A DNA stretch of 32,000 bases from positions 8,040,001 to 8,072,000 of the forward strand of contig NC_010628.1 in NCBI RefSeq assembly GCF_000020025.1. Direction: 5' to 3'. Made by a program: the position numbers and the translations under genes. Source of the DNA: Nostoc punctiforme PCC 73102 (GTDB lineage Bacteria > Cyanobacteriota > Cyanobacteriia > Cyanobacteriales > Nostocaceae). Positions 6,410 through 28,451 of the stretch are shown here, piece by piece; the first letter of the stretch is position 1; each line of letters opens with the position of its first letter. The notes beneath the pieces are model-generated. The model was not told the origin of the DNA and searched no databases. It saw only the letters and a program-made list of their open reading frames with translations.

Positions 6410-7117
6410 TTACTTGTTATACCAGGCTTTTCGCCACTGTTGCATTTGTTTAATTTCTATCTCTTGGGCTTTAACAATTTCTTGGGCTAATTTCTTAATT
6501 TCAGGGCGGTTAGACTTACTTAAGGCATCTTGCCCCATTGTTACAGCCCCTTGGTGGTGAGGAATCATCCCATTGATAAAGCGCAAATCAAACTCAGCAT
6601 CAGCTGCACCTAAGTCTTGACTCATCATCATGCCTTTCATTTGGTCAGACGACATTTCCATCGTATGACCCATTTGGCTATTGTAAGCCATCGGTTTATC
6701 TCCCGCCTTGGGATACCAAGCTTGTCGCCACTGCTTCATCTGAGTGATTTCTTGGTTTTGCGATTTGATGATATTGTCTGCTAGCTTTTTGATTTCAGGA
6801 CGTTTTGATTTCTGCTGCGCTTCTTTAGCCATTTCCACAGCCCCTTGATGGTGGGGTATCATAGCGTCGATAAATCGTAAATCAAAATTAGCATCGGCTG
6901 GGCCTAAATCCATTCCCATGCTGTGATTCATCATGCCACTACCGTGATTCATCATCTGCTTGTCATTAGCATTGGTGGTGGTTGCCTTTGTTGCTTGGCT
7001 TTGGTTCTGGGAAGCGGTACTAGTACAACCTGTCATTAACGCACTGGCTGAGGCGATCGCACTAAAGGTTAACGCCAAAAAGCCATTCCTCAAAGATACC
7101 AGTTGCATAAATCTCAC
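6410..7117 (-). CDS. DUF305-family, CopM-like periplasmic metal-binding lipoprotein
   Basis: Signal peptide with a lipobox-like LMTGC. There is a Met/His-rich stretch (MMNHGSGMMNHSMGM). The half-domain FDLRFIxxMIPHHQGAVxM...RPEIKKLA...W is internally duplicated, as in Synechocystis CopM. Confidence 0.85.
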   Translation of the reverse strand: MRFMQLVSLRNGFLALTFSAIASASALMTGCTSTASQNQSQATKATTTNANDKQMMNHGSGMMNHSMGMDLGPADANFDLRFIDAMIPHHQGAVEMAKEAQQKSKRPEIKKLADNIIKSQNQEITQMKQWRQAWYPKAGDKPMAYNSQMGHTMEMSSDQMKGMMMSQDLGAADAEFDLRFINGMIPHHQGAVTMGQDALSKSNRPEIKKLAQEIVKAQEIEIKQMQQWRKAWYNK

Positions 7118-9964: not shown

Positions 9965-12046
9965 TTAGCTATAGTAAGCTAATAAATTGCTATACGCCGC
10001 CTCGATTTTTTGCAACTGAGCTATTACATCTTCCTGTAAGTTTTTTAAACGATTGAACTCACTCTCACGATTGATTTCACGGGTTTGTTTCTGTTTGACT
10101 AAATTATCTAATTCGGATTTGCGAGATACAATATCATCGTTAATCCGCTTACTCACTTCTCTTTCGTAAGAGTCAAAACACTCTTTTACGGCATTATATA
10201 CAACCTGAGATTGCTCGTGTGCCACTTGTGGTAAGTGTTTAACTAATTCTTTCTTCGCCGTTTTAACTAACTCCCTACGTGCTTGATCTGCTTGCAAAAA
10301 TCCTACTCCCAAGCCTAGCAACGCAAATCCGATTGGACCAAGCAAAATACCCGTCACTGCTGTAATTATCCCGCCAATACCAATTACAGTGAAGTAGTTT
10401 AACAAAATATTTTTCCAATCGAATCCGGCACCGGCTAGTGCGAAACCAGCAAGATTTCCTTTAGACAGTGATAACAATCCCATTGCCCATTTTGCCCAGC
10501 CGGGAGAGTTATCTTCTTCAGCAGTAGTAGTGGTATGTACCTTTACGTCTTTTCCGGTGAGCTTTTCTGTAATTTGGTCTGTGATTTGATTGTAAGATGC
10601 ACCATATTGTGATGCACTGCGAGAAAGTTCTTTAAAAGCTGCGTTAATATCTTTTTCAGCAGTTAATGTCCAAGCCGCAGATTTGTCGGTAATATATTGC
10701 TCAAAGGCTTTTTGCAGTGCGGCGTTAAATGCTTCTCGTTTACCACTACTGAGAAAATCAAACAAATTTAATTCTGGTTGATAGCGTAAGAAGTCGTTTT
10801 CAAAGGTATTACCTAAGTTTAAAACGTAACTGCGGAAAGATTCAGAAATCGTTCTTGCTTGAGTATCTCTTGTATTGATAATTTCTTTTTGGAATTCATC
10901 CCGAATACCTGTGAGTTTGTTAAACTCAGGTTCCACTGAATCAATCCGTTTTTTTAATTCATTTACATCTTGCTCAAGTAATGGTATACGTCTTGCAACT
11001 GCTTCGCGGGTATGATTGCAGGCAAGTCTTGCCAAGGTTCTGACTTGACGAAGTTCTGCGATCGCACGTTCTCTGGTAAGAAAAGTATTAAGCGAATCCA
11101 TAAACTTCGGAAAGCCAGTCCCATCTAAATCAGCTTGCGGGTTCTTCAACCGTCGTCTGAGTGCTTGAATCGACGAAAGCTCAAATACCCGTTCGTCATA
11201 AATATTCTGACCTTCTACAGTACAATATTCTGCTAAATTTGCGTTAAATACTTGCCGCAATCTATTCTCAGATGCTTGTAATTCTTCGACATCATCAGGA
11301 TCGATCAATGATTCTCGCACCTGATCCCAAGCATTAACTAAAAAGAAAACTGTTAATCCCCGACCTTTGATATAATTTTCTAGGTAGCGACGCTCACCCA
11401 AGGTACAAGGTTGAGAAGCTCTCATCACAAACAGAATTGCATGGCAGTTATTTACATAACCCAAAGATAATTCGTTTCGCGCTTCTGTATCATTCAATCC
11501 TGGACTATCGACAATTTCGATTCCCTTTTGTAGTAGCGTTAAGGGATACTCAACTACTGCATAATCAACATCGGGAAAGGCTTGTTTTTTCTCTTGCTCT
11601 AGTTTTTTAGCTTCAGCCGGATCAATAGTATATTTATATTTAAAGTTCTGAAAATCTAGCTGTTGGGGGCTTTTTCCATCATTAAAATGAATGGTAACTT
11701 TCTTTTCTGGTCCATAACGTAAAACTGTTAACACTGCGGTACAAGGGTTAACATCGCTTGGTAATAAGTTTTCACCAATTAAGGCGTTAAGAAAAGTACT
11801 TTTTCCCCGCTTCATATCGCCTAATACTAAAAGGCGAAATACACCTTGTTGGAGGTTTTTACTCGCTATTGTAATATCTTCAATATCTCGCTCTAAACTG
11901 AGTTTTCCTGATGAGGAGTCCCCAGCTAACTCAGCCTTATTAATTGTTTCAGCCAGTTTATTCAAACATACAGACATTTCCGATCGCACTTGAGCAACCC
12001 GCTCTAAATCTTGGATAAATCTGTCAGTTGCTACTTGATTCACCAT
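9965..12046 (-). CDS. Bacterial dynamin-like protein (BDLP)
   Basis: G1 motif LGDMKRGKSTFLNA, G3 motif VDSPGLND, and NAWD in place of the G4 motif. The paddle/membrane-insertion region is GFALAGAGFDWKNILLNYFTVIGIGGIITAVTGILLGPIGFALLGLGVGFL. From memory, the sequence matches the N. punctiforme BDLP used for the 2006 crystal structures. Confidence 0.95.
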   Translation of the reverse strand: MVNQVATDRFIQDLERVAQVRSEMSVCLNKLAETINKAELAGDSSSGKLSLERDIEDITIASKNLQQGVFRLLVLGDMKRGKSTFLNALIGENLLPSDVNPCTAVLTVLRYGPEKKVTIHFNDGKSPQQLDFQNFKYKYTIDPAEAKKLEQEKKQAFPDVDYAVVEYPLTLLQKGIEIVDSPGLNDTEARNELSLGYVNNCHAILFVMRASQPCTLGERRYLENYIKGRGLTVFFLVNAWDQVRESLIDPDDVEELQASENRLRQVFNANLAEYCTVEGQNIYDERVFELSSIQALRRRLKNPQADLDGTGFPKFMDSLNTFLTRERAIAELRQVRTLARLACNHTREAVARRIPLLEQDVNELKKRIDSVEPEFNKLTGIRDEFQKEIINTRDTQARTISESFRSYVLNLGNTFENDFLRYQPELNLFDFLSSGKREAFNAALQKAFEQYITDKSAAWTLTAEKDINAAFKELSRSASQYGASYNQITDQITEKLTGKDVKVHTTTTAEEDNSPGWAKWAMGLLSLSKGNLAGFALAGAGFDWKNILLNYFTVIGIGGIITAVTGILLGPIGFALLGLGVGFLQADQARRELVKTAKKELVKHLPQVAHEQSQVVYNAVKECFDSYEREVSKRINDDIVSRKSELDNLVKQKQTREINRESEFNRLKNLQEDVIAQLQKIEAAYSNLLAYYS

Positions 12047-12062
12047 AATATTTACACCTTAA

Positions 12063-12389
12063 TTAAAGATTGGTTTTTTTAGATTCCAAAAATAATTTGT
12101 AAGACATCCATCCCAGCGCCGCAACAATAATAAACCCAGCCAACACTGAGGCTATTCTCACTGCAACTAGTGTTACTACACCAAGAGCAAACAGCTTTCC
12201 ACCCAGAATCACTTTTTGCATCCAAGGTTTCTGAGAATTTTCTGGCTGATGCTTCACAGTTTGATGAAAAGCTGCATTGGTAGTATGGAGGCTAGTTTCC
12301 ATTTCCCGGAGTCGCAATTCAACTTCTCGTTCTCGTAGTAAACATTCCCGGAGTTCAAGTTCTTTTTGGCGATCGCTTTCAGATGTCAT
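12063..12389 (-). CDS. Small coiled-coil plus two-TM membrane protein, probably co-transcribed with BDLP
   Basis: The N-terminus is a charged heptad-like segment, QKELELRECLLREREVELRLREMETSL. The C-terminus has two hydrophobic helices (LFALGVVTLVAVRIASVLAGFIIVAALGWMSY). Its stop codon is 16 nt upstream of the BDLP start on the same strand. Confidence 0.65.
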   Translation of the reverse strand: MTSESDRQKELELRECLLREREVELRLREMETSLHTTNAAFHQTVKHQPENSQKPWMQKVILGGKLFALGVVTLVAVRIASVLAGFIIVAALGWMSYKLFLESKKTNL

Positions 12390-12563
12390 CGGTATCCACT
12401 CCGTCTAAGACAATGAAAAGATGTCAGCATTTACTCGCTAATCATGCTGTATCCTAACTTACGTAAATCTTTAAAAACCCCAGTAAAATTACTATTTTAA
12501 TTGCCTGCTAAATTGAAGCTGTAGTTAGCCACTACAAAATGCACCTGCTTCCCAGAACTAAAG

Positions 12564-12738
12564 CCAATACAGTTCAGTTAAGCATTTTTTTCTTTTCTCT
12601 GTTTGCTCTGCGTCTCTGTGGTAGCCTGACGCTCCTTCTCTGCGAGACGCTGCGCGAACGTCGCTACCGCTTCGCTAATGCGTCTACGTAAAAAATTGAC
12701 TTTAACAAAGAGTTTGAGCCTTAACCGAACCGTATTGG
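12564..12738. mobile_element. Second copy of the 9563-type MITE in opposite orientation, carrying a nested insert
   Basis: The TIRs ccaatacagttcagttaag and cttaaccgaaccgtattgg match in 17 of 19 positions when one is reverse-complemented. The flanking 8-mers aactaaag and aaccaaag match in 7 of 8 positions. The interior shares the gcatttttttcttttctctg...ctctgcg core with the first copy and also contains an unrelated repeat (ttctctgcgagacgctgcgcg) that recurs at about 12920. Confidence 0.65.
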
Positions 12739-13068
12739 AACCAAAGCGAAGCACCGAACTACTAAGGTGCGATCGCATGATCGCAATGGGCATTATTCAC
12801 TGTAAATGATGCCTAACTTTTGCCAGTTACGCCGTCTGTTTAGAACCTGCTTTTGAGTCTGCGGTCGATTTTAACCGGGTAATGGTGGCTTTACGAATGC
12901 GTAGGCGTAGCCCGCACTTCTCTACGAGACGCTCCGCGTAGCTTGCTTCCACGAAGTGGTACGGCAAGCTCAGTGACCACCGCAGGCATCACTCTTGCGT
13001 ACCCCGCCTGTCATCTCGTATTCCCGGCTGTCTTTGCCATACTTCAACGCCACACCACTTAACAAGCG

Positions 13069-13250
13069 TTCTGAACAAAAAGACTTGTGTTCTGAACAAA
13101 CGGGCTTATGTTCTGAACGAACGGGCTTGTGTTCTGAACAAACGGGCTTATGTTCTGAACGAACGGGCTTGTATTCTGAACGAATGGGCTTGTGTTCTGA
13201 ACGGATGGGCTTGTGTTCTGAACGAATGGGCTTGTGTTCTGAACAAACAT
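13069..13250. repeat. 21-bp tandem array, about 8.7 copies (consensus ttctgaacgaacgggcttgtg)
   Basis: Units start at 13069, 13090, 13111, 13132, 13153, 13174, 13195, 13216 and 13237, with point variants. All reading frames stay open only because 21 is a multiple of 3. Confidence 0.95.
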
Positions 13251-13353
13251 ATAAAACTAATATTTTAATTTTGAAATACATCTATTAAAGAGAGACGCGA
13301 TAAATGCTTTCTCTAAGTAGTAGTGCAAAATTAAATATACATCTGTCATTCTG

Positions 13354-13398
13354 GAGTTTAGTGGGTCATGAATTGAAAGTTCATGACCCACTAAACTC
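13354..13398. other. Perfect 19-bp-stem hairpin / palindrome
   Basis: gagtttagtgggtcatgaa (13354..13372), loop ttgaaag, then ttcatgacccactaaactc (13380..13398). The stem can extend by about 3 more pairs, one of them G:U. Confidence 0.85.
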
Positions 13399-14014
13399 TA
13401 GTACAATAGAACAAAAATTTTTGCAAGTATTAATACTGCTTTAAATGTATAAATATTTATATTTTACTTAAATATATTGATTAGCGTAGGCGTAGCCCGC
13501 CGTAGGCATCGCACCTTTTTTATCCGACCTCACAAAATTGCGTTGCTCCCTATTAGCATACGTTGTGGCATCATTTGACGATGTTTATCTAGGTGGGTGA
13601 GGGCGATCGCTCTTGGCGGCGGGTACGCCGGGAGCGCAATCGTCTGCTAGTTCCTGCTCAATGTCGATGTTTTTCGAGTTGCATTTAGAGCGATGCATAG
13701 TTAATGTATTAAACGACACTTATTTTTCGGAGCTTTACTATGTAGTACTACTTAGTTATGCGTACACCATAGCCTTGGTAAGGAGAGCCAGATTCGAGCG
13801 GTTGCCTTTGCAACTGCCATTTGGGCAATCGCTCAAATTCATACTTCAATTATGCAACGCCCACTTTTTTACATTGCGCCCGAACAAACAGGAGGCTGTC
13901 AGGCAATCACGAATCATTAGCAAGGCTGTAACCATAAAATTACCTGGCTTTTCCCGCCGCTATGCTCAACTGGTGGCAGGCAGTGGCAGACGCTCTGCTA
14001 TGGCTTTACTTTTA

Positions 14015-14344
14015 TTAATCATCATCAGAATCCCAGGGACCCCCGTGATCATAACCCCCGTGATCATAACCCCCGTGACCATAACCCCCGTGACCATAAC
14101 CCCCGTGACCATAACCCCCGTGACCATAACCCCCGTGACCATAACCCCCGTGACCATAACCCCCGTGACCATAACCCTCGTGACCATAGCCCCCGTGACC
14201 ATAACCTCCGTGACCATAACCCCCGTGACCATAACCCCCGTGACCATAACCTCCGTGACCATAACTATAACCACCAGATAGAAGCTGCTGTTCGTTTGTG
14301 GATAGTTCTGTCAGCAACTCACATATGTTAATTTGATCCGACAT
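14015..14344 (-). CDS. Double-glycine-leader secreted peptide precursor with a (GYGHG)n repeat core
   Basis: A GAGG Shine-Dalgarno sequence lies 7 nt upstream of the ATG at 14344 (ctGAGGtaattATG). The leader MSDQINICELLTELSTNEQQLLSGG fits the GG-leader consensus (L-12, E-8, L-4, G-2, G-1). The core is YSYGHG(GYGHG)n...GYDHGGYDHGGPWDSDDD. Confidence 0.7.
   Translation of the reverse strand: MSDQINICELLTELSTNEQQLLSGGYSYGHGGYGHGGYGHGGYGHGGYGHGGYGHEGYGHGGYGHGGYGHGGYGHGGYGHGGYGHGGYGHGGYDHGGYDHGGPWDSDDD
14041..14265. repeat. 15-bp tandem repeat x15 (ccccgtgaccataac) encoding the GYGHG core
   Basis: Read directly. The variant units are gatcataac (changing G to D) and ccctcgtgaccatagc (changing G to E). 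Confidence 0.95.
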
Positions 14345-14965
14345 AATTACCTCAGTTTTATTCATTACCTGTTACAAACTGTACCGATCTGAAATACAAA
14401 TTTGGAGCGATCAAAATCTGGAATTTTAATGCTCCAGACCATTCAAAACCTAATTGAAATTCTCATGGAAGTCATTGTGGCGAACCAACAATGTATCTTA
14501 ACTTTTATATTTTTCATTGGAGTAGCTACTCCTTCTTTTTATAGATATGGTTATCTATAAAAAGTCTGAAATTTTCTTGATTAGGCGATGTTACAAAAAT
14601 AGTGTGAATTGCAGCAACAAATCGATGAAAACCGGAATCAAGGTATAAAAATTTTTAAGCAGCTTTCGTAACTTCTCAATAAGCGCTGGTAAAGCTAATA
14701 GAGGTGTTTAAGGAAGACAATGGGATAAATCCGGAATGAGCTAGGGTTGCTTTGAGGGCAAAAATCTGGTTTAACAACTTACAAGTGTTTGGGTCTTATC
14801 TGAACTGTATTGCATCGCGTCTGATCTTTCCGCAATCCAGGGATTTATAGAGACGCGATGAATCGCGTTTTCTTCCTCAAAATAGAATTTTAGGCAAATT
14901 AGATGTAAATCATGCCACCGCTATAAGCCAAAATTTTTATAGATACTCACACAGGTATAGTCAAA

Positions 14966-15940
14966 ATGGATATTAAAAATGGCTTCGTCGGCGCTGTTGG
15001 CAACACACCCCTGATTCGCTTAAACAGCTTCAGTGAAGAAACAGGGTGTGAAATCCTCGCAAAAGCTGAATTTCTCAATCCTGGCGGTTCCGTCAAAGAC
15101 CGCGCCGCACTTTACATCATCGAAGATGCAGAAAAGAAAGGTTTACTCAAACCCGGTGGTACGGTTGTAGAAGGAACTGCTGGTAATACTGGCATTGGAC
15201 TGGCGCATATTTGCAACGCCAAAGGCTACAAATGCCTAATTATTATTCCCGATACCCAATCACAAGAAAAAATAGACGCACTGATCGCATTAGGCGCAGA
15301 AGTCCGTCGCGTTCCTGCCGTACCCTACAAAGACCCAAATAACTACGTCAAGCTATCTGGAAGAGTCGCTGCTGAGTTGGAAAATGCTATTTGGGCGAAT
15401 CAGTTTGATAACCTAGCCAATCGCCACGCCCACTACGAAACCACAGGGCCAGAAATTTGGAAACAGACAGATGGTAAAATAGATGCATGGACAGCTTCAA
15501 CTGGTACTGGTGGTACTTATGCTGGTGTGGCGTTGTACTTAAAAGAACAAAATCCAGGAATCAAATGCGTTGTTGCCGATCCACTGGGTAGCGCACTTTA
15601 TAGCTATGTCAAAACCGGCGAAATCAATATAAAAGGAAATTCCATCACCGAAGGTATCGGAAATGGTCGTGTCACAGCCAATATGGAAGGCGCACCTGCT
15701 GATGATGCCATCCAAATCGATGACAAAGAAGCTTTACGAGTAGTTTACCAACTGCTAAGGAAAGATGGGCTGCTAATGGGCGGCTCAACGGGGATTAATG
15801 TTGGCGCAGCTGTTGCTCTAGCGAAGCAATTGGGCCCAGGACATACCATTGTCACCATCTTGTGTGATAGTGGTTCACGGTATCAGTCGCGGATATTCAA
15901 CCCTGAATGGCTAGCTTCAAAAGGACTTTCAATAGATTAG
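14966..15940 (+). CDS. PLP-dependent cysteine synthase family protein (CysK/CBS-like)
   Basis: GNTPLIRL, the PLP-lysine motif NPGGSVKDRAA, TAGNTGIGLA and a GTGGT loop are all present. Length is 324 aa. Confidence 0.9.
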   Translation: MDIKNGFVGAVGNTPLIRLNSFSEETGCEILAKAEFLNPGGSVKDRAALYIIEDAEKKGLLKPGGTVVEGTAGNTGIGLAHICNAKGYKCLIIIPDTQSQEKIDALIALGAEVRRVPAVPYKDPNNYVKLSGRVAAELENAIWANQFDNLANRHAHYETTGPEIWKQTDGKIDAWTASTGTGGTYAGVALYLKEQNPGIKCVVADPLGSALYSYVKTGEINIKGNSITEGIGNGRVTANMEGAPADDAIQIDDKEALRVVYQLLRKDGLLMGGSTGINVGAAVALAKQLGPGHTIVTILCDSGSRYQSRIFNPEWLASKGLSID

Positions 15941-24787: not shown

Positions 24788-27700
24788 TTAATATTCATCT
24801 ATAAATTGAGGATGAACCCAAAGAAATTCACGGCGTTTGTTTTGCACCCGCACTAGACCACCAAAACTAGGATCTTTCTCTTTTAATAAGGTGTGTAATT
24901 CTCGCAAAATTGAGCCTTGAGCGCGGATTGCATCGCCTTCCAAGAAGGAAGCATCGCTCTTGGACTTTCCAGCCAAAGCCATATCACTTCCCTTCAAAGT
25001 AGACTCGATGCTTTTCTGTCCTAAATCAAGTTGTTCTTCAATGGCTTTGTAGGTAGTATCATCCAGTATAAATTTAGTTGCCGAACCTGCCACAGGTAAG
25101 ACTAGGCTCAGGGTTCCGGTCAAAATTCTGAGATAGGGGACTGCTTTGGTGAACCACTCACGCGGTAAGTCTAATTCATAGACTCCCTTTTTCTTGTCGT
25201 TGGGATTTAAAGCTGGAAGTGGTTGACGTGCGTGTTCGCACCAGAGGGTGAGTTGAAACTTAGCACTAATCCATTTGGGGCGATCAAAAAATCCTGGTTC
25301 AATGGGTTTAAAGCTGAACAGGCGCGGGCCATCTTTCGCTTCATCGGTGAGCATCTGCATCAGTTCTGCAAACTGCTGATCGACCTGGCTTAAAATGGTA
25401 CGTTGCTCCTGAGATAATACCTGAAAGCGTGCTTGATCTAGGCGATCGTACATAACCAAATCTTTGCGGATGACGTTTAGCTCGTCTTTCACAATGTATC
25501 GGAACTGCTCAATGCCAATTTCTTGGGATGGGGGTTGAGCAGTTGGCGCGTTATTCAGCAATTGATCGATGTTTTGCCATTCGCCACACCCGGAAATGGG
25601 ACACGGGAACTCATGGCGATTTTTCTTTTTGCTTTCAATTAGTTTTTGTACCTCAAACAGTCCGTTTCCAGGGGCATTCATACCGCAAGTTTCAATGCAG
25701 GGAACCATCACATTACAACGCAATCCTTCCCAGAAATTCTCGACTAGCCATTTAATCTCTTCTGTGAGATATGACAGGAACCTTTCTGGATAAGCTGCCC
25801 GTACCGTAATTTTTACATCAGTGCCAACATATTCCAGCAATGCCCGACCGTTGTAATCATTGTCAAGCATTAAGCCCCGTTGCCAATGGATGCTGTTTTC
25901 GTAATTCGCCCGTCCCAGCGAGTATTTGTGCAACCGAACAATTAACTGGTAAAACAAACCTTCTGCTACTGCAAACTGTCCGCGACTGTCCACAATGCGG
26001 CAGATTTGCACCTGTTGTCTATCTCCCGCTTCTGGTTGCTCTCCCCAATTGGGCAATGGCTCCGGGCGTGTGTCGGGAACGAGTTGAGCAATTAGGCTGG
26101 TATTGCTAGTTTCTGACGGATCGAAAACCACTTTGTAGGATAGATCAAAGCGTTCCATCAGCCGCAGAAAGATTGGATGCAATTTTGGGGGGTAGCCTTC
26201 TTCGCCTGCAAATGGCGGATGGCTCCACAACTGGCTGAGATGTTTAAATTCCACTAAACCGTTGCGTTTGCGTGTTGTTTCATCATCTAGCACGAAGCTG
26301 ATCGCCTTTGCCAGCCAATCGGGTTTGAGAATGACGATATCGCGTAGTGTTGGGTCGTAATGGTAATGGATGAAATGCCCTAATATATGGGAGATGCGAA
26401 GAAACAGTTCTGCTTGCTCCTCATCGATTCCCTGTTCAGCGCAGATGGTAATGACATCATCGTAGGGGAGATAGGCTTTGTCACTTGTCTGTAAAGTTTC
26501 CCGCACCTGTTGCCACTTTGCTGGAACGGAACGCCCCATTTCGGGAAGAGATGCAGCGACACGAGCAATAGTATCTTTTAATTCTGCAAGACCAGCGCAA
26601 TCCGTCGTATCCTGGTTGGGTTTGCTGTCTACATGGAAGAAATCGATTACCGTATCTTTGCCGAATTGATCCAGAATTTCTTGTCTGTCAATGTCCGGTT
26701 GTCGCTGTCCGGGGCCGCCGTGGGTTGCGACGACCAACACCTTTGCATCTGGTTCTCGATTTTTGATCAGCGTAATCCACTCTTTGACAAAGCCCTGCTG
26801 GGGACCTTCCCGTGGCTTCCAGATCACCAGATACACGGCTGGGGCACTGAAAAACAACTGGTGCGTCGGTCGATAAACCCGTTGACCGCCAAAATCCCAA
26901 CCATTGAGTGATATCTCTGTGCCACTGTCGGGATCGGTGACGATTACAGATTTAATTTCAATCCCGTGAGTCGTGGGGCGACCATCCTCCCATTCATCTC
27001 CCCGCAATGCTCCCAACAGACAACTTTTGCCCACCTCACCCTCACCAATTAGGATCAGTTTGGCTTCATTCAGCGTCACCTGTGCTTCTGATCTTGCCCG
27101 CAGGTATTGCAAGACTGCTTCAGTGCCTTGTTCGTAGGCAGCAGCAAGATCAGGATTGAGGGGATTGTGGTCAAGCTGGATATCGTCCAGGTGAGGAAGT
27201 TGCCCTAGCGATGCTGGCAAGTCGGTTAGACAGTTGCTTCCTAGATAGAGTTCTTCCAACTGTGGGAATTCATTCAGCCAGTCAGGCAAAAAATGCAGTT
27301 CACAGTTATTTGCCCAAATCCTCCGAATTTGCTTAATTCGTTGAATGCATGGAGGAAGTTTGCTCAGTGGATTACCACCATCATCAGCTCCTAAAATGAT
27401 AAATTCTAAACTTTGGAGTTTATCCAGTGATTTAGGAAGTTCCGAAATTTGGTTGCCACCAATGCTGAGTATTTCTAATACATGCAGATCACAAATCCAT
27501 GAAGGAATTACTTCTAAATCGTTTGCGTAAATATATAATTCTTTCAACCCTTTCAGTTCTTTTATGACTGATGGAACTTGTCTGAGTAGATTACTTCCAC
27601 AATCAAATATCTCTAAATACAGTAGGCGACTTAATGAATTTGGCAGTTCCGTTAATTCGTTGTGGGAGAGGTCAAATGATTGTAACTGAGTCAGGGATGC

Positions 27701-28168
27701 GATCGCTTCTGGCAGTTCTGTCAATTGGTTGTTAGAGAGGTCAAGCCGTTGCAACCGAGTCAGGGATGCGATCGCTTCTGGCAGTTCTGTCAATTGGTTG
27801 TTGCGGAGGTTAAGCTCTTGCAACTGAGCCAAGGATGCGATCGCTTCTGGCAGTTCTGTCAATTGGTTGTTAGAGAGGTCAAGCCGTTGCAACCGAGCCA
27901 AGGATGCGATCGCTTCTGGCAGTTGGGTCAGTTTATTATTGGAGAGGTCAAGCGTTTGCAACTGGGTCAAGGATGCGATCGCCTCTGGCAGTTGGGTCAC
28001 TTGGTTTCTGGAGAGGTCAAGCTGTTGCAACTGTGTCAGAGATGCGATCGCTTCTGGTATCTCAGTGAGTTCTATCTTGCTGAGATCGAGTTCTATTGCT
28101 CCCTCTTGCCGTGCTTTTTCAATGCGCTGCTCTGCTTTTTGATAAGCTTTATCTCTTGCCATGAGCAA
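24788..28168 (-). CDS. ROCO protein: LRR plus Roc GTPase plus COR, then a Cys cluster and an uncharacterised C-terminal region of ~300 aa
   Basis: About 13 LRRs (LxxLxLxxNxLxxLPxxI). Roc motifs are G1 [11 protein letters not shown]3 WDFGGQ and a VVATHGG G4-like motif. A COR-like region follows ([10 protein letters not shown]..., [10 protein letters not shown]...). Next comes PCIETCG-x28-CPISGCGEW, then a tail with no recognisable motif. Confidence 0.9.
27616..28090. repeat. Near-identical 69-bp tandem units encoding the N-terminal LRRs, each carrying one in-phase HIP1 site
   Basis: GCGATCGC occurs at 27699, 27768, 27837, 27906, 27975 and 28044, exactly 69 bp apart. It encodes the A-I-A of the repeated PEAIASL. 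Confidence 0.95.
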
Positions 28169-28287
28169 ATCCTTTCTTTCACTACCAAAATCGGAGTAAT
28201 AGCCAGACTCTTATTCTAATGTCAAAAGTAGATTCAGCTTGGTACAGAATTTAATTAATTTATAGCGAATTAAATTTGGCTATACCC

Positions 28288-28451
28288 TGCATTGTTAGTG
28301 TATAGGTCTGCATTGTTAATGCGTCGGCTTGCATTGTTAGTGTATAGGTCTGCATTGTTAATGCGTCGGCTTGCATTGTTAGTGTATCGGTCTGCATTGT
28401 TAATGCGTCGGCTTGCATTATTAATGCATCGGTCTGCATTGTTAATGCGTT
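28288..28451. repeat. 21-bp tandem array with a 42-bp higher-order (A-B) structure, about 8 units
   Basis: Units start at 28288, 28309, 28330, 28351, 28372, 28393, 28414 and 28435. Unit A is tgcattgttagtgtataggtc and unit B is tgcattgttaatgcgtcggct. Unit B contains the small palindrome gcatt-N3-aatgc. Confidence 0.95.

Follow-up and report, generated by a model that had tools for sequence, protein, structure and literature searches.

This study concerns a 32,000-nucleotide stretch of the genome of Nostoc punctiforme PCC 73102 (contig NC_010628.1, positions 8,040,001 to 8,072,000 of the forward strand; hereafter the window), and within it a small gene for a peptide that joins a double-glycine leader to a highly repetitive core of glycine, tyrosine and histidine. 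The gene is a 109-codon open reading frame (ORF) on the minus strand (14344..14015), which runs from an ATG at 14344-14342 to a TAA at 14017-14015 and specifies a precursor of 109 residues. Its coding sequence (14015..14344, minus strand), as read from the ORF translation, comprises the leader, the repeat core, an acidic tail and the stop codon, and three orthologues preserve its frame, leader and tail. A GAGG ribosome-binding site read from the sequence lies 5 nt upstream of the ATG (14350..14353, minus strand); this site, CTGAGGTAATTATG, is unchanged in four of four genomes, including that of Nostoc sp. LEGE 12447, where homology to the window starts just upstream of it. An earlier examination of these letters without database searches (the sequence-only reading) had described the ORF, the GAGG site and the double-glycine leader, and our own reading agrees on all three. 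An alternative in-frame ATG at 14365 would prepend MNKTEVI and give a 116-residue version, but translation likely starts at 14344, because nearly all relatives begin MS(D/N)Q. Neither the 109- nor the 116-residue version is present in a collection of 15 billion proteins that does hold the neighbouring proteins, so the peptide gene is unannotated; as judged from sequence, it is nevertheless a real gene.

The leader (MSDQINICELLTELSTNEQQLLSGG, 25 residues; 14270..14344, minus strand), with cleavage predicted after Gly25, was recognized through a match to NF038167 and through a family alignment. NF038167, which is named 'CTB family bacteriocin' (cyan_ocin_like), aligns residues 1-26 of the peptide with model positions 1-23 of 72, with an E-value of 3.7e-4 when the whole peptide is used and of 5e-5 when only the leader is, and the orthologues and close relatives score 16-28 bits on the same model. 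Pfam returned no match for the peptide or its orthologues, even at an E-value of 10, although the Pfam copy used apparently does not contain PF28158, because the protein P0005, for which a precomputed PF28158 match exists, gave none. When a five-sequence profile was run exhaustively with HMMER against 1.84 billion representatives, 67 matches were obtained at E<=1e-3; nearly all are 40-95 residues long, begin MS(D/N)Q and have the leader MSxQIIxSDLLVELSTEEQQLLSGG, and after ...DLLVELSTEEQQLLSGG they continue with short cores of low complexity, composed of Gly, Tyr/Trp/Phe, His and Arg. A second search with a 61-sequence profile yielded 138 matches, and every one that bears an organism name comes from the Nostocales (Nostoc, Anabaena, Dolichospermum, Komarekiella, Halotia, Sphaerospermopsis and Cylindrospermum); nearly all of the named ones are labelled 'hypothetical protein', and many have a precomputed match to Pfam PF28158 'CTB'. 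Conservation in the 61-member family alignment is confined to the leader, in which G24 and G25 do not vary and M1, S2, L14, S15, E18 and Q19 hardly do, and the window peptide has a leader of this type (MSxQ...LxELSxEEQxxLxGG), ending in Gly-Gly. In a single-sequence AlphaFold2 model the best-scoring part is a helix at residues 7-21, where the mean predicted local distance difference test (pLDDT) scores of the 10-residue blocks are 69 and 59, in keeping with the amphipathic helical character of double-glycine leaders. Double-glycine leaders have Gly-Gly at positions -2 and -1, hydrophobic residues at -4, -7, -12 and -15 and an acidic residue at -8, and the window leader fits this consensus at G-1, G-2, L-4, E-8, S-11, L-12 and L-15 and departs from it at -7, where it has Gln. 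By these alignments the leader falls within a group of bacteriocin-like peptides known from cyanobacteria (the CTB leader family); the gene is related to the curated CTB family through its leader, scores below that family's cutoff and has an extreme repeat core. In a separate case, a second peptide with a double-glycine leader is encoded directly downstream of the relative P0003 (L003, 3282-3476; leader ...LLEELSAAAQQELSGG, core HRHGYGGYPGYGYGGYPAYPGPVVVVT), so Gly/Tyr/His cores are also found as tandem gene pairs.

The predicted mature product (14018..14269, minus strand) has 84 residues, a mass of 8.36 kDa and, from computation of its composition and charge, an isoelectric point (pI) of ~6.05. 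It ends in PWDSDDD and is almost entirely Gly (50%), Tyr (19%) and His (18%), with no Lys or Arg, much as the sequence-only reading had proposed for a product of ~84 residues. The core opens with YSYGHG, continues through 12 GYGHG units (one of which is GYGHE) and 2 GYDHG units, and closes with GPWDSDDD. The underlying DNA is a 15-bp tandem array of GGTTATGGTCACGGG that encodes (GYGHG)n (14039..14265, minus strand), to which Tandem Repeats Finder assigns a period of 15, 15.1 copies, 96% matches and a score of 412, far beyond chance, and which is the strongest short-period repeat of the window. The tandem organization noted earlier thus stands, with the count corrected from ~16 to ~15 copies. 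Nine of the units are perfect, three are synonymous variants (two with GGA, one with GGC) and two have GAT/Asp; the GGC variant additionally has GAG/Glu. Among the 165 family cores that could be parsed, no other is as long as that of the window peptide (84 residues, median 42) or carries so negative a formal charge (-7, median +2; 111 of the 165 are positive). Fifteen cores in the family form a His-rich subgroup with at least 15% His, poly-His tracts among them.

AlphaFold2 gave the core no confident fold (pLDDT below 50), and it is predicted to be intrinsically disordered. Its computed charge is +12.5 at pH 4 and -5.9 at pH 7, which corresponds to a switch from cationic to anionic around pH 6, and its imidazoles are evenly spaced along the chain. 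With 15 His in 84 residues, the peptide might be thought to store metal or act as a chaperone in the cytoplasm, as Hpn or the His-rich tails of UreE and HypB do, and to remain unexported; the orthologues do weakly match His-rich regions of UreE and DmeF (E 0.12-9). These matches are compositional and far under the cutoffs, however, and the N-terminus is an export leader that is specific to the family and linked to transporter loci, so that we regard a cytoplasmic role as extremely improbable.

The sequence-only reading had interpreted the leader as one that is cleaved by C39-peptidase ABC transporters (PCATs), and this interpretation is supported by the NF038167 match, by the Nostocales leader family and by the genomic contexts of relatives. 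Such contexts were retrieved for four family members besides the orthologues (L012, L016, L017 and L018/L019), and in four of four a HlyD-like adaptor and a Peptidase_C39 ABC transporter adjoin the CTB peptides. The locus is conserved among Nostocales, with the order YidD, a 233-residue protein, a CTB peptide of 92-123 residues, the HlyD-like adaptor (502 residues) and the Peptidase_C39/ABC protein (722 residues), followed by a protein of 103-105 residues and then by one to three hypervariable small CTB peptides; it extends over 3409-10174 in L016, 2552-10165 in L017, 3135-10153 in L018 and 2966-8834 in L012. The L012 transporter shows both catalytic motif regions, DCGAAC for the Cys and YHWVV for the His. 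The 103-105-residue protein has a leader-like motif of its own (FRDLSEKEQETLAAGQ), and several CTB cores in these loci combine a poly-acidic block with an Arg/Cys-rich block. No modification enzyme is annotated in any of these conserved loci. L016 is the transporter locus of Nostoc sp. LEGE 12447, a genome that also holds, on a different contig, the orphan orthologue P0002 with an identical leader; an orphan copy and a distant transporter locus therefore coexist in this relative. No HlyD and C39-ABC locus stands beside the window gene (within the 32 kb) or beside its three orthologues.

N. punctiforme itself has 14 bacteriocin-type clusters according to Wang et al. 2011, the most among 58 genomes, and one of these is of group III (PMC3140520). 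The precursors of the group III cluster are CDS18 (7,580,633-7,580,920, 95 residues), CDS19 (7,581,400-7,581,528, 42 residues) and, after a 4.3-kb gap, Npun_F6131 (7,585,824-7,586,141, 105 residues), Npun_F6132 (7,586,462-7,586,704, 80 residues) and CDS20 (7,586,927-7,587,112, 61 residues, pI 12) (PMC3140520 Table S3). Because the order and spacing of these precursors around the gap equal those of L018, we infer that the group III cluster at ~7.58 Mb is the cognate exporter locus. The window gene is absent from the supplement of that study, in which the chromosomal N. punctiforme precursors given all lie at <=7.59 Mb, because only the surroundings of clusters were screened (PMC3140520).

An orthologue scan that used one genome per species, and that did not return the window's own genome, found the gene in only three other genomes. 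In Nostoc sp. LEGE 12450 the locus is 95-97% identical and syntenic on the side of the window's cysteine synthase gene, with a DDE_5 transposase on the opposite side, and the 61-residue core reads HG(GYGHG)5(GYGHR)4(GYGHG)3GYDD. In N. foliaceum FACHB-393 homology is limited to 13958-14603 of the window, and the cassette lies on a contig of 9 kb that also encodes ParA, ParB and a RecD2-like helicase; the core is of the form HW(GH)n...GRGHHRRWDYDDD and has 56 residues. In Nostoc sp. LEGE 12447 homology is limited to 13958-14355, ParDE and a DDE_3 transposase adjoin, and the core (P0002) has 40 residues of the (HG)nW type. The upstream boundaries determined by blastn, 14603 for N. foliaceum (L015) and 14355 for LEGE 12447 (L001), delimit a region at 14356..14603 (minus strand) that is probably the promoter and 5' region and that accompanies the gene in the former genome only; on the other side, a conserved 3' flank that travels with the gene (13958..14014, minus strand) ends at 13958, where homology with both genomes stops. 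The ribosome-binding site and leader are identical at 85 of 86 nt in each of the three orthologues and the 3' flank at 62-65 of 66 nt, and the stop codon, the DD/DDD tail and the frame are retained throughout. Conservation of the reading frame in relatives, the lack of which would by its own account have refuted the sequence-only reading, is thus found in three orthologues whose cores differ. Indels that do not involve the repeat, a 12-nt YSYG insertion and a GPWDS segment among them, are also in frame. The 15-nt unit of the window, CACGGGGGTTATGGT, differs at two positions from the unit of N. foliaceum and LEGE 12447, CACTGGGGTCATGGT (H-W-G-H-G), so that point changes and subsequent amplification relate the arrays to one another. 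Net charge varies among the four orthologues (pI 6.05, 9.0, 7.2 and 7.0); common to all four are a high density of His (18-39%), Gly, either Tyr or Trp as the aromatic residue, and the acidic tail. These comparisons indicate that the cassette is mobile or has recently been exchanged among genomic contexts, and that the core is remodelled by slippage in units that are multiples of three bases, far faster than the ~99%-identical leader and flanks change.

On the plus strand a 222-residue ORF with VTITP repeats (13613..14281; MetaClust UPI000324808A) runs antisense through the array. Both strands are open there (the 222-residue plus ORF and a 102-residue minus ORF) because the repeat unit has no stop in any frame. 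In the LEGE 12450 locus the antisense ORF is split into three ORFs and the peptide ORF is intact, so the frame that is maintained appears to be that of the peptide rather than the antisense one. The 222-residue ORF is spurious and probably represents a false gene call that occupies the real gene's place in protein databases.

These observations bear on whether the gene could be a non-functional CTB remnant, that is, a decaying or hitch-hiking cassette whose core has been overrun by a microsatellite-like repeat and which is unexpressed or without a role. Several features would suit such a remnant: the gene is unannotated and sits in an orphan position away from any transporter, in a variable region with other tandem and inverted repeats and synteny breakpoints; it has transposase or plasmid genes as neighbours in other strains; scans for its promoter and terminator were empty; and repeat units that are multiples of three would hold an ORF open without selection. 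However, four independent versions are intact in start, ribosome-binding site, leader, frame and acidic tail, the indels outside the repeat are likewise in frame whereas the antisense ORF is broken in LEGE 12450, and the cassette has been kept after moves into three different contexts. We therefore consider a remnant very unlikely.

The sequence-only reading also expected the copy number to vary between strains, and this is only partly borne out, since assembly artefacts limit the evidence. The only usable comparison is with LEGE 12450, which has 12 units against ~15 in PCC 73102 and comes from a 6x-coverage short-read assembly. A 59-residue version (P0001) was considered as a strain variant and rejected, as its flanks are 100% identical to the window and the array carries a clean 150-bp deletion; P0001 is almost certainly the product of short-read assembly collapse. 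In Logan short-read assemblies of the same strain, the array is shortened by exactly 150 bp in L002 and contigs stop inside it in L008-L010, so short-read assemblies misreport the peptide gene, for example as a 59-residue protein. True copy-number variation remains plausible.

What the exported peptide would do is less constrained than how it would be exported. The family name suggests a classical unmodified bacteriocin, in which case an exported Gly/His-rich peptide would inhibit related cyanobacteria or other bacteria, in the manner of the shepherins and perhaps activated by metal or low pH. The leader family carries the name 'CTB family bacteriocin', its genes cluster with HlyD and PCAT genes, and a constant leader joined to a hypervariable core is typical of antagonistic peptides; moreover, a net positive charge and an abundance of Arg and aromatic residues mark 111 of the 165 family cores, the window peptide becomes strongly cationic below pH 6, and filamentous cyanobacteria reportedly make bacteriocins against their relatives (Flores and Wolk 1986, cited in PMC9846622). 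The core of the window peptide nevertheless speaks against this activity: it has no Lys or Arg and no hydrophobic stretch, carries a charge of about -6 at pH 7 that makes it the most acidic of the 165, and is in this respect atypical both of its mostly cationic family and of membrane-active peptides. The literature yielded no report of activity tests on any CTB member, no immunity gene was found, and the sole small ORF next to the gene has no sign of selection. An antibiotic role, exerted at low pH or with metals, is a serious rival to the explanation favoured below, though a doubtful one.

One argument for a different extracellular role is the occurrence of similar runs in other secreted proteins. 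A degenerate DNA pattern for GYGHGGYGHGGYG matched 87 metagenome stretches (L020-L106), and the proteins in which these encode GYGHGGYGHGGY are nearly all Gly-rich bacterial proteins with Sec signals or plant- or animal-like glycine-rich proteins; they have 3-7 copies of GYGHG and no double-glycine leader, and the bacterial ones are diverse and often of high GC content. HHPPEEEEKD spacers occur in the plant-like glycine-rich proteins. No orthologue of the window peptide occurs among the 87 stretches, and a metagenome scan with the family alignment gave 141 pattern matches, 0 of them confirmed. Literature searches found no match for the locus tags Npun_6514-6516 and nothing relevant for GYGHG. 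It appears from these searches that GYGHG runs recur in secreted proteins, and that the window peptide would reach export by a different route, with a much longer run.

These runs are compatible with an extracellular self-assembling or matrix peptide, in which (GHGGY)15 would undergo coacervation or gelation triggered by pH or metal and contribute to sheath, biofilm or adhesion, possibly with oxidative Tyr cross-links. GHGGY fits the pattern GHGxY, at least 4 tandem GHGLY copies suffice for phase separation, deprotonation of His is the trigger and clustering of Tyr stabilizes the separated phase (PMC6884462); the window core has 15 copies, a charge switch at pH 6 and predicted disorder. There is also precedent in cyanobacteria, where the PCAT-exported double-glycine-motif proteins EbfG1-4 are Tyr/Pro-rich, of low complexity and required for biofilm formation (PMC4997328), and GYGHG runs are found in the many Sec-signal bacterial and plant-like proteins described above. 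On the other hand, the characterized motifs have Leu, Val or Pro at x and their behaviour depends on hydrophobicity (PMC6884462), at neutral pH the Asp-rich tail and the charge of -6 should work against self-association unless the chains are bridged by cations, two orthologues swap Tyr for Trp and use (HG)n, and no matrix, tyrosinase or peroxidase gene is linked to the cassette. We regard such a role as unlikely. A bolder form of the idea, in which (GHGGY)15, secreted through a bacteriocin-type exporter, would be a pH- and metal-switchable phase-separating or gelling material of the sheath, a prokaryotic counterpart of squid beak proteins that arose by convergence, and the CTB family, with its 'sticker-spacer' cores of Gly, aromatic residues, Arg and His, a condensate toolbox instead of a set of antibiotics, is distinctly unlikely.

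We favour the explanation, to which we assign a probability of about 0.6, that the window holds an orphan CTB-leader gene for a PCAT-exported, disordered (GYGHG)~15 peptide whose function would rest on its His chemistry. According to this model, translation of the 109-residue precursor would use the GAGG site and begin with the ATG at 14344, the start that conservation favours. The helical 25-residue leader of the precursor would then be recognized by a PCAT and a HlyD-type adaptor encoded elsewhere, likely in the one group III cluster that N. punctiforme has, at ~7.58 Mb on its chromosome, and would be cut after Gly25 during export, as expected from the family. The released product, an 84-residue disordered (GYGHG)~15 peptide with an Asp-rich tail, would have an extracellular role (competition, metal handling or matrix formation) rather than that of a classical cationic membrane attack, and its 15 imidazoles might coordinate Cu, Ni or Zn or promote His-Tyr self-association. 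A His-centred role is favoured because the orthologues conserve His density and the peptide has none of the cationic or hydrophobic features of membrane-active peptides. The export steps have precedent in EbfG/PteB, cyanobacterial double-glycine-motif proteins that are exported by a PCAT and whose cleavage has been seen by mass spectrometry (PMC4997328), and CTB genes are transcribed in Nodularia, where starvation for phosphate induces them (PMC9846622).

A number of results weigh against this explanation. Since nothing beyond the leader aligns with NF038167, the match stays under that model's curated cutoff of 32 bits, at 20.6 bits for the full peptide and 23.4 bits when the leader is scored by itself; the leader has Gln at position -7, a site that is hydrophobic in canonical double-glycine leaders. 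No convincing sigma-70 promoter was found on the minus strand near the peptide gene, a scan of that strand for promoters and terminators gave nothing above shuffle expectation for it, and the 3' flank (13958..14014) folds no better than shuffled sequence (z-score +0.88) and holds no minus-strand terminator. The conserved frame is a weaker test than it seems, since 15- and 6-bp units keep the frame automatically, and the near-identity of leader and flanks may stem from recent transfer instead of long purifying selection, as it implies that selection has had little time to act. The acidic character is not conserved, the LEGE 12450 orthologue being basic (pI ~9). With regard to export, a Pfam scan that covered the window's ORFs of >=100 aa except for seven, most of them overlapping or antisense calls, found no C39 transporter within the ~14 kb on either side of the gene, which would follow if the gene is an orphan satellite, as the separate contigs of LEGE 12447 suggest; the clusters formed at 90% identity around the four related PCATs have no member from N. 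punctiforme, and this species contributes no paralogue of the peptide to the 120 matches listed from the 138-match profile search. The part of the model that concerns function is a best guess from composition and analogy, and both the Gly at x and the added negative charge of the Asp tail count against self-association. The same Pfam scan found no LanM, cyclodehydratase, radical-SAM or similar modification enzyme and no recognizable immunity gene, so the sequence-only reading was right that the window offers neither these nor a transporter.

Several other features surround the gene. A small divergent ORF with one hydrophobic stretch lies upstream on the plus strand (14402..14560) and encodes 52 residues from a TTG at 14402 or 43 from an ATG at 14429; the 43-codon form (14429..14560) had already been listed as a neighbour with no other support, and nothing here adds any. 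The ORF occurs in LEGE 12450 (L014) and N. foliaceum (L015), where the surrounding DNA is equally conserved, and not in LEGE 12447; it has no family match in Pfam or NCBIfam and no match in the 15-billion-protein collection. An immunity function is not supported for it, as 4 of its 6 substitutions are non-synonymous. The ORF is probably not a gene and more likely forms part of the upstream region of the peptide gene. It contains a terminator-like hairpin, GGAGTAGCTACTCC, followed by a T-run (plus strand, 14519-14532), which could terminate a short transcript made on the plus strand from the shared intergenic region. Further out lie the genes for a cysteine synthase (14966-15940, exact match to ACC84778.1) and the dynamin-like protein BDLP (9965-12046, exact match to ACC84775.1). 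A functional tie between the peptide and the cysteine synthase was rejected, as the cassette occurs in unrelated contexts in two other genomes. A DUF305/DUF4142 protein (6410-7117, minus strand), encoded 7 kb from the peptide gene, shows no evident linkage to it, because the cassette occurs without it in other genomes.

Other repeats are also present. A 21-bp tandem repeat (GTTCTGAACGAACGGGCTTGT; 13068-13248, 8.6 copies, 89% matches) leaves several frames open and lies just beyond 13283, where LEGE 12450 homology ends. Near it are an inverted repeat (13342-13410; 31-nt arms, 84% complementary, 7-nt loop) and direct repeats at 12484-12502/13252-13270 (19 nt, 89%) and 12899-12915/13484-13500 (17 nt, 100%), and the repeat-rich intergenic stretch at 12.4-13.5 kb may be a small mobile or repeat-rich element. 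A search of 12300-15000 with Rfam returned only chance-level miRNA-like matches, to the hairpin at 13340-13412. A 69-bp tandem repeat (27641-28057, 6 copies) lies within the gene of a 1126-residue leucine-rich repeat (LRR)/Roc-COR protein, whose product has leucine-rich repeat matches, and an intergenic 42/21-bp repeat (28287-28450, 3.9/7.7 copies) lies just upstream of that gene.

The analysis supplies the reference genome of a model cyanobacterium with a gene that its annotation lacked and flags the antisense ORF that stands in for it in databases. It also suggests that the substrates of PCAT exporters can be orphan, mobile cassettes far from the transporter, which cluster-centred genome mining (Wang et al. 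2011) would miss. The near-identical leader and wholly remodelled core make a clean case of peptides diversifying very fast through repeat slippage. Heterocyst-forming cyanobacteria widely have members of the CTB family, which is transcribed, and the literature yielded no functional test of it; the (GYGHG)15 peptide is an extreme and easily synthesized case, with which an antibiotic, a metal binder and a self-assembling material could be told apart.

In comparison with known systems, the window gene is closest to the CTB family (NF038167, PF28158), with which it shares a homologous leader with Gly-Gly near residue 25, a Nostocales host, a small size and a hypervariable low-complexity core rich in Gly, aromatic residues and His. 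Unlike typical members, it does not adjoin a HlyD/PCAT locus, and its core is a nearly perfect 15-copy tandem repeat, without Lys or Arg, that is the longest and most acidic of its kind. Shepherins I and II are plant Gly/His-rich antimicrobial peptides of 28-38 residues that are released by proteolysis of a precursor. Like the window peptide they consist mostly of Gly and His with some Tyr, whereas they have no double-glycine leader, regular pentapeptide register or acidic tail. The NHLP/Nif11 leader peptides and prochlorosins, of which N. punctiforme has many, are similar in that a C39 ABC transporter cleaves at Gly-Gly and a constant leader precedes a hypervariable core (PMC3140520); however, their leaders belong to a different and much longer family, and their cores are usually rich in Cys, Ser and Thr and modified by LanM or cyclodehydratase. 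Unlike the precursors of RiPPs (peptides of ribosomal origin that are modified after translation) in general, neither the window gene nor the CTB loci are linked to a modification enzyme.

Two further systems resemble the peptide in the properties of its mature part. EbfG1-4 and PteB of Synechococcus elongatus PCC 7942 are likewise a case of small cyanobacterial double-glycine-motif proteins, with EbfG cleaved and exported by a C39 transporter, and the mature parts of EbfG1-4 are Tyr/Pro-rich, of low complexity and devoted to a non-antibiotic biofilm role (PMC4997328); in contrast to the window gene, the ebfG genes form an operon near their own system, and composition and organism differ. The squid beak proteins HBP-1/2 and the peptide HBpep share tandem Gly-His-Gly-x-Tyr motifs, in which His is the pH switch and Tyr a 'sticker', and are disordered (PMC6884462). 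In that system 4 tandem GHGxY copies already allow phase separation (PMC6884462), and the window core has 15 in the GHGGY register, but x is Gly in every unit instead of the hydrophobic Leu, Val or Pro of the beak proteins. The likeness is one of convergence between non-homologous proteins, and the window gene encodes a bacterial, leader-exported peptide with an Asp tail. The kind of system to which the gene belongs is, by its sequence relationships, already known; its repeat-core variant is unusual and experimentally tractable.

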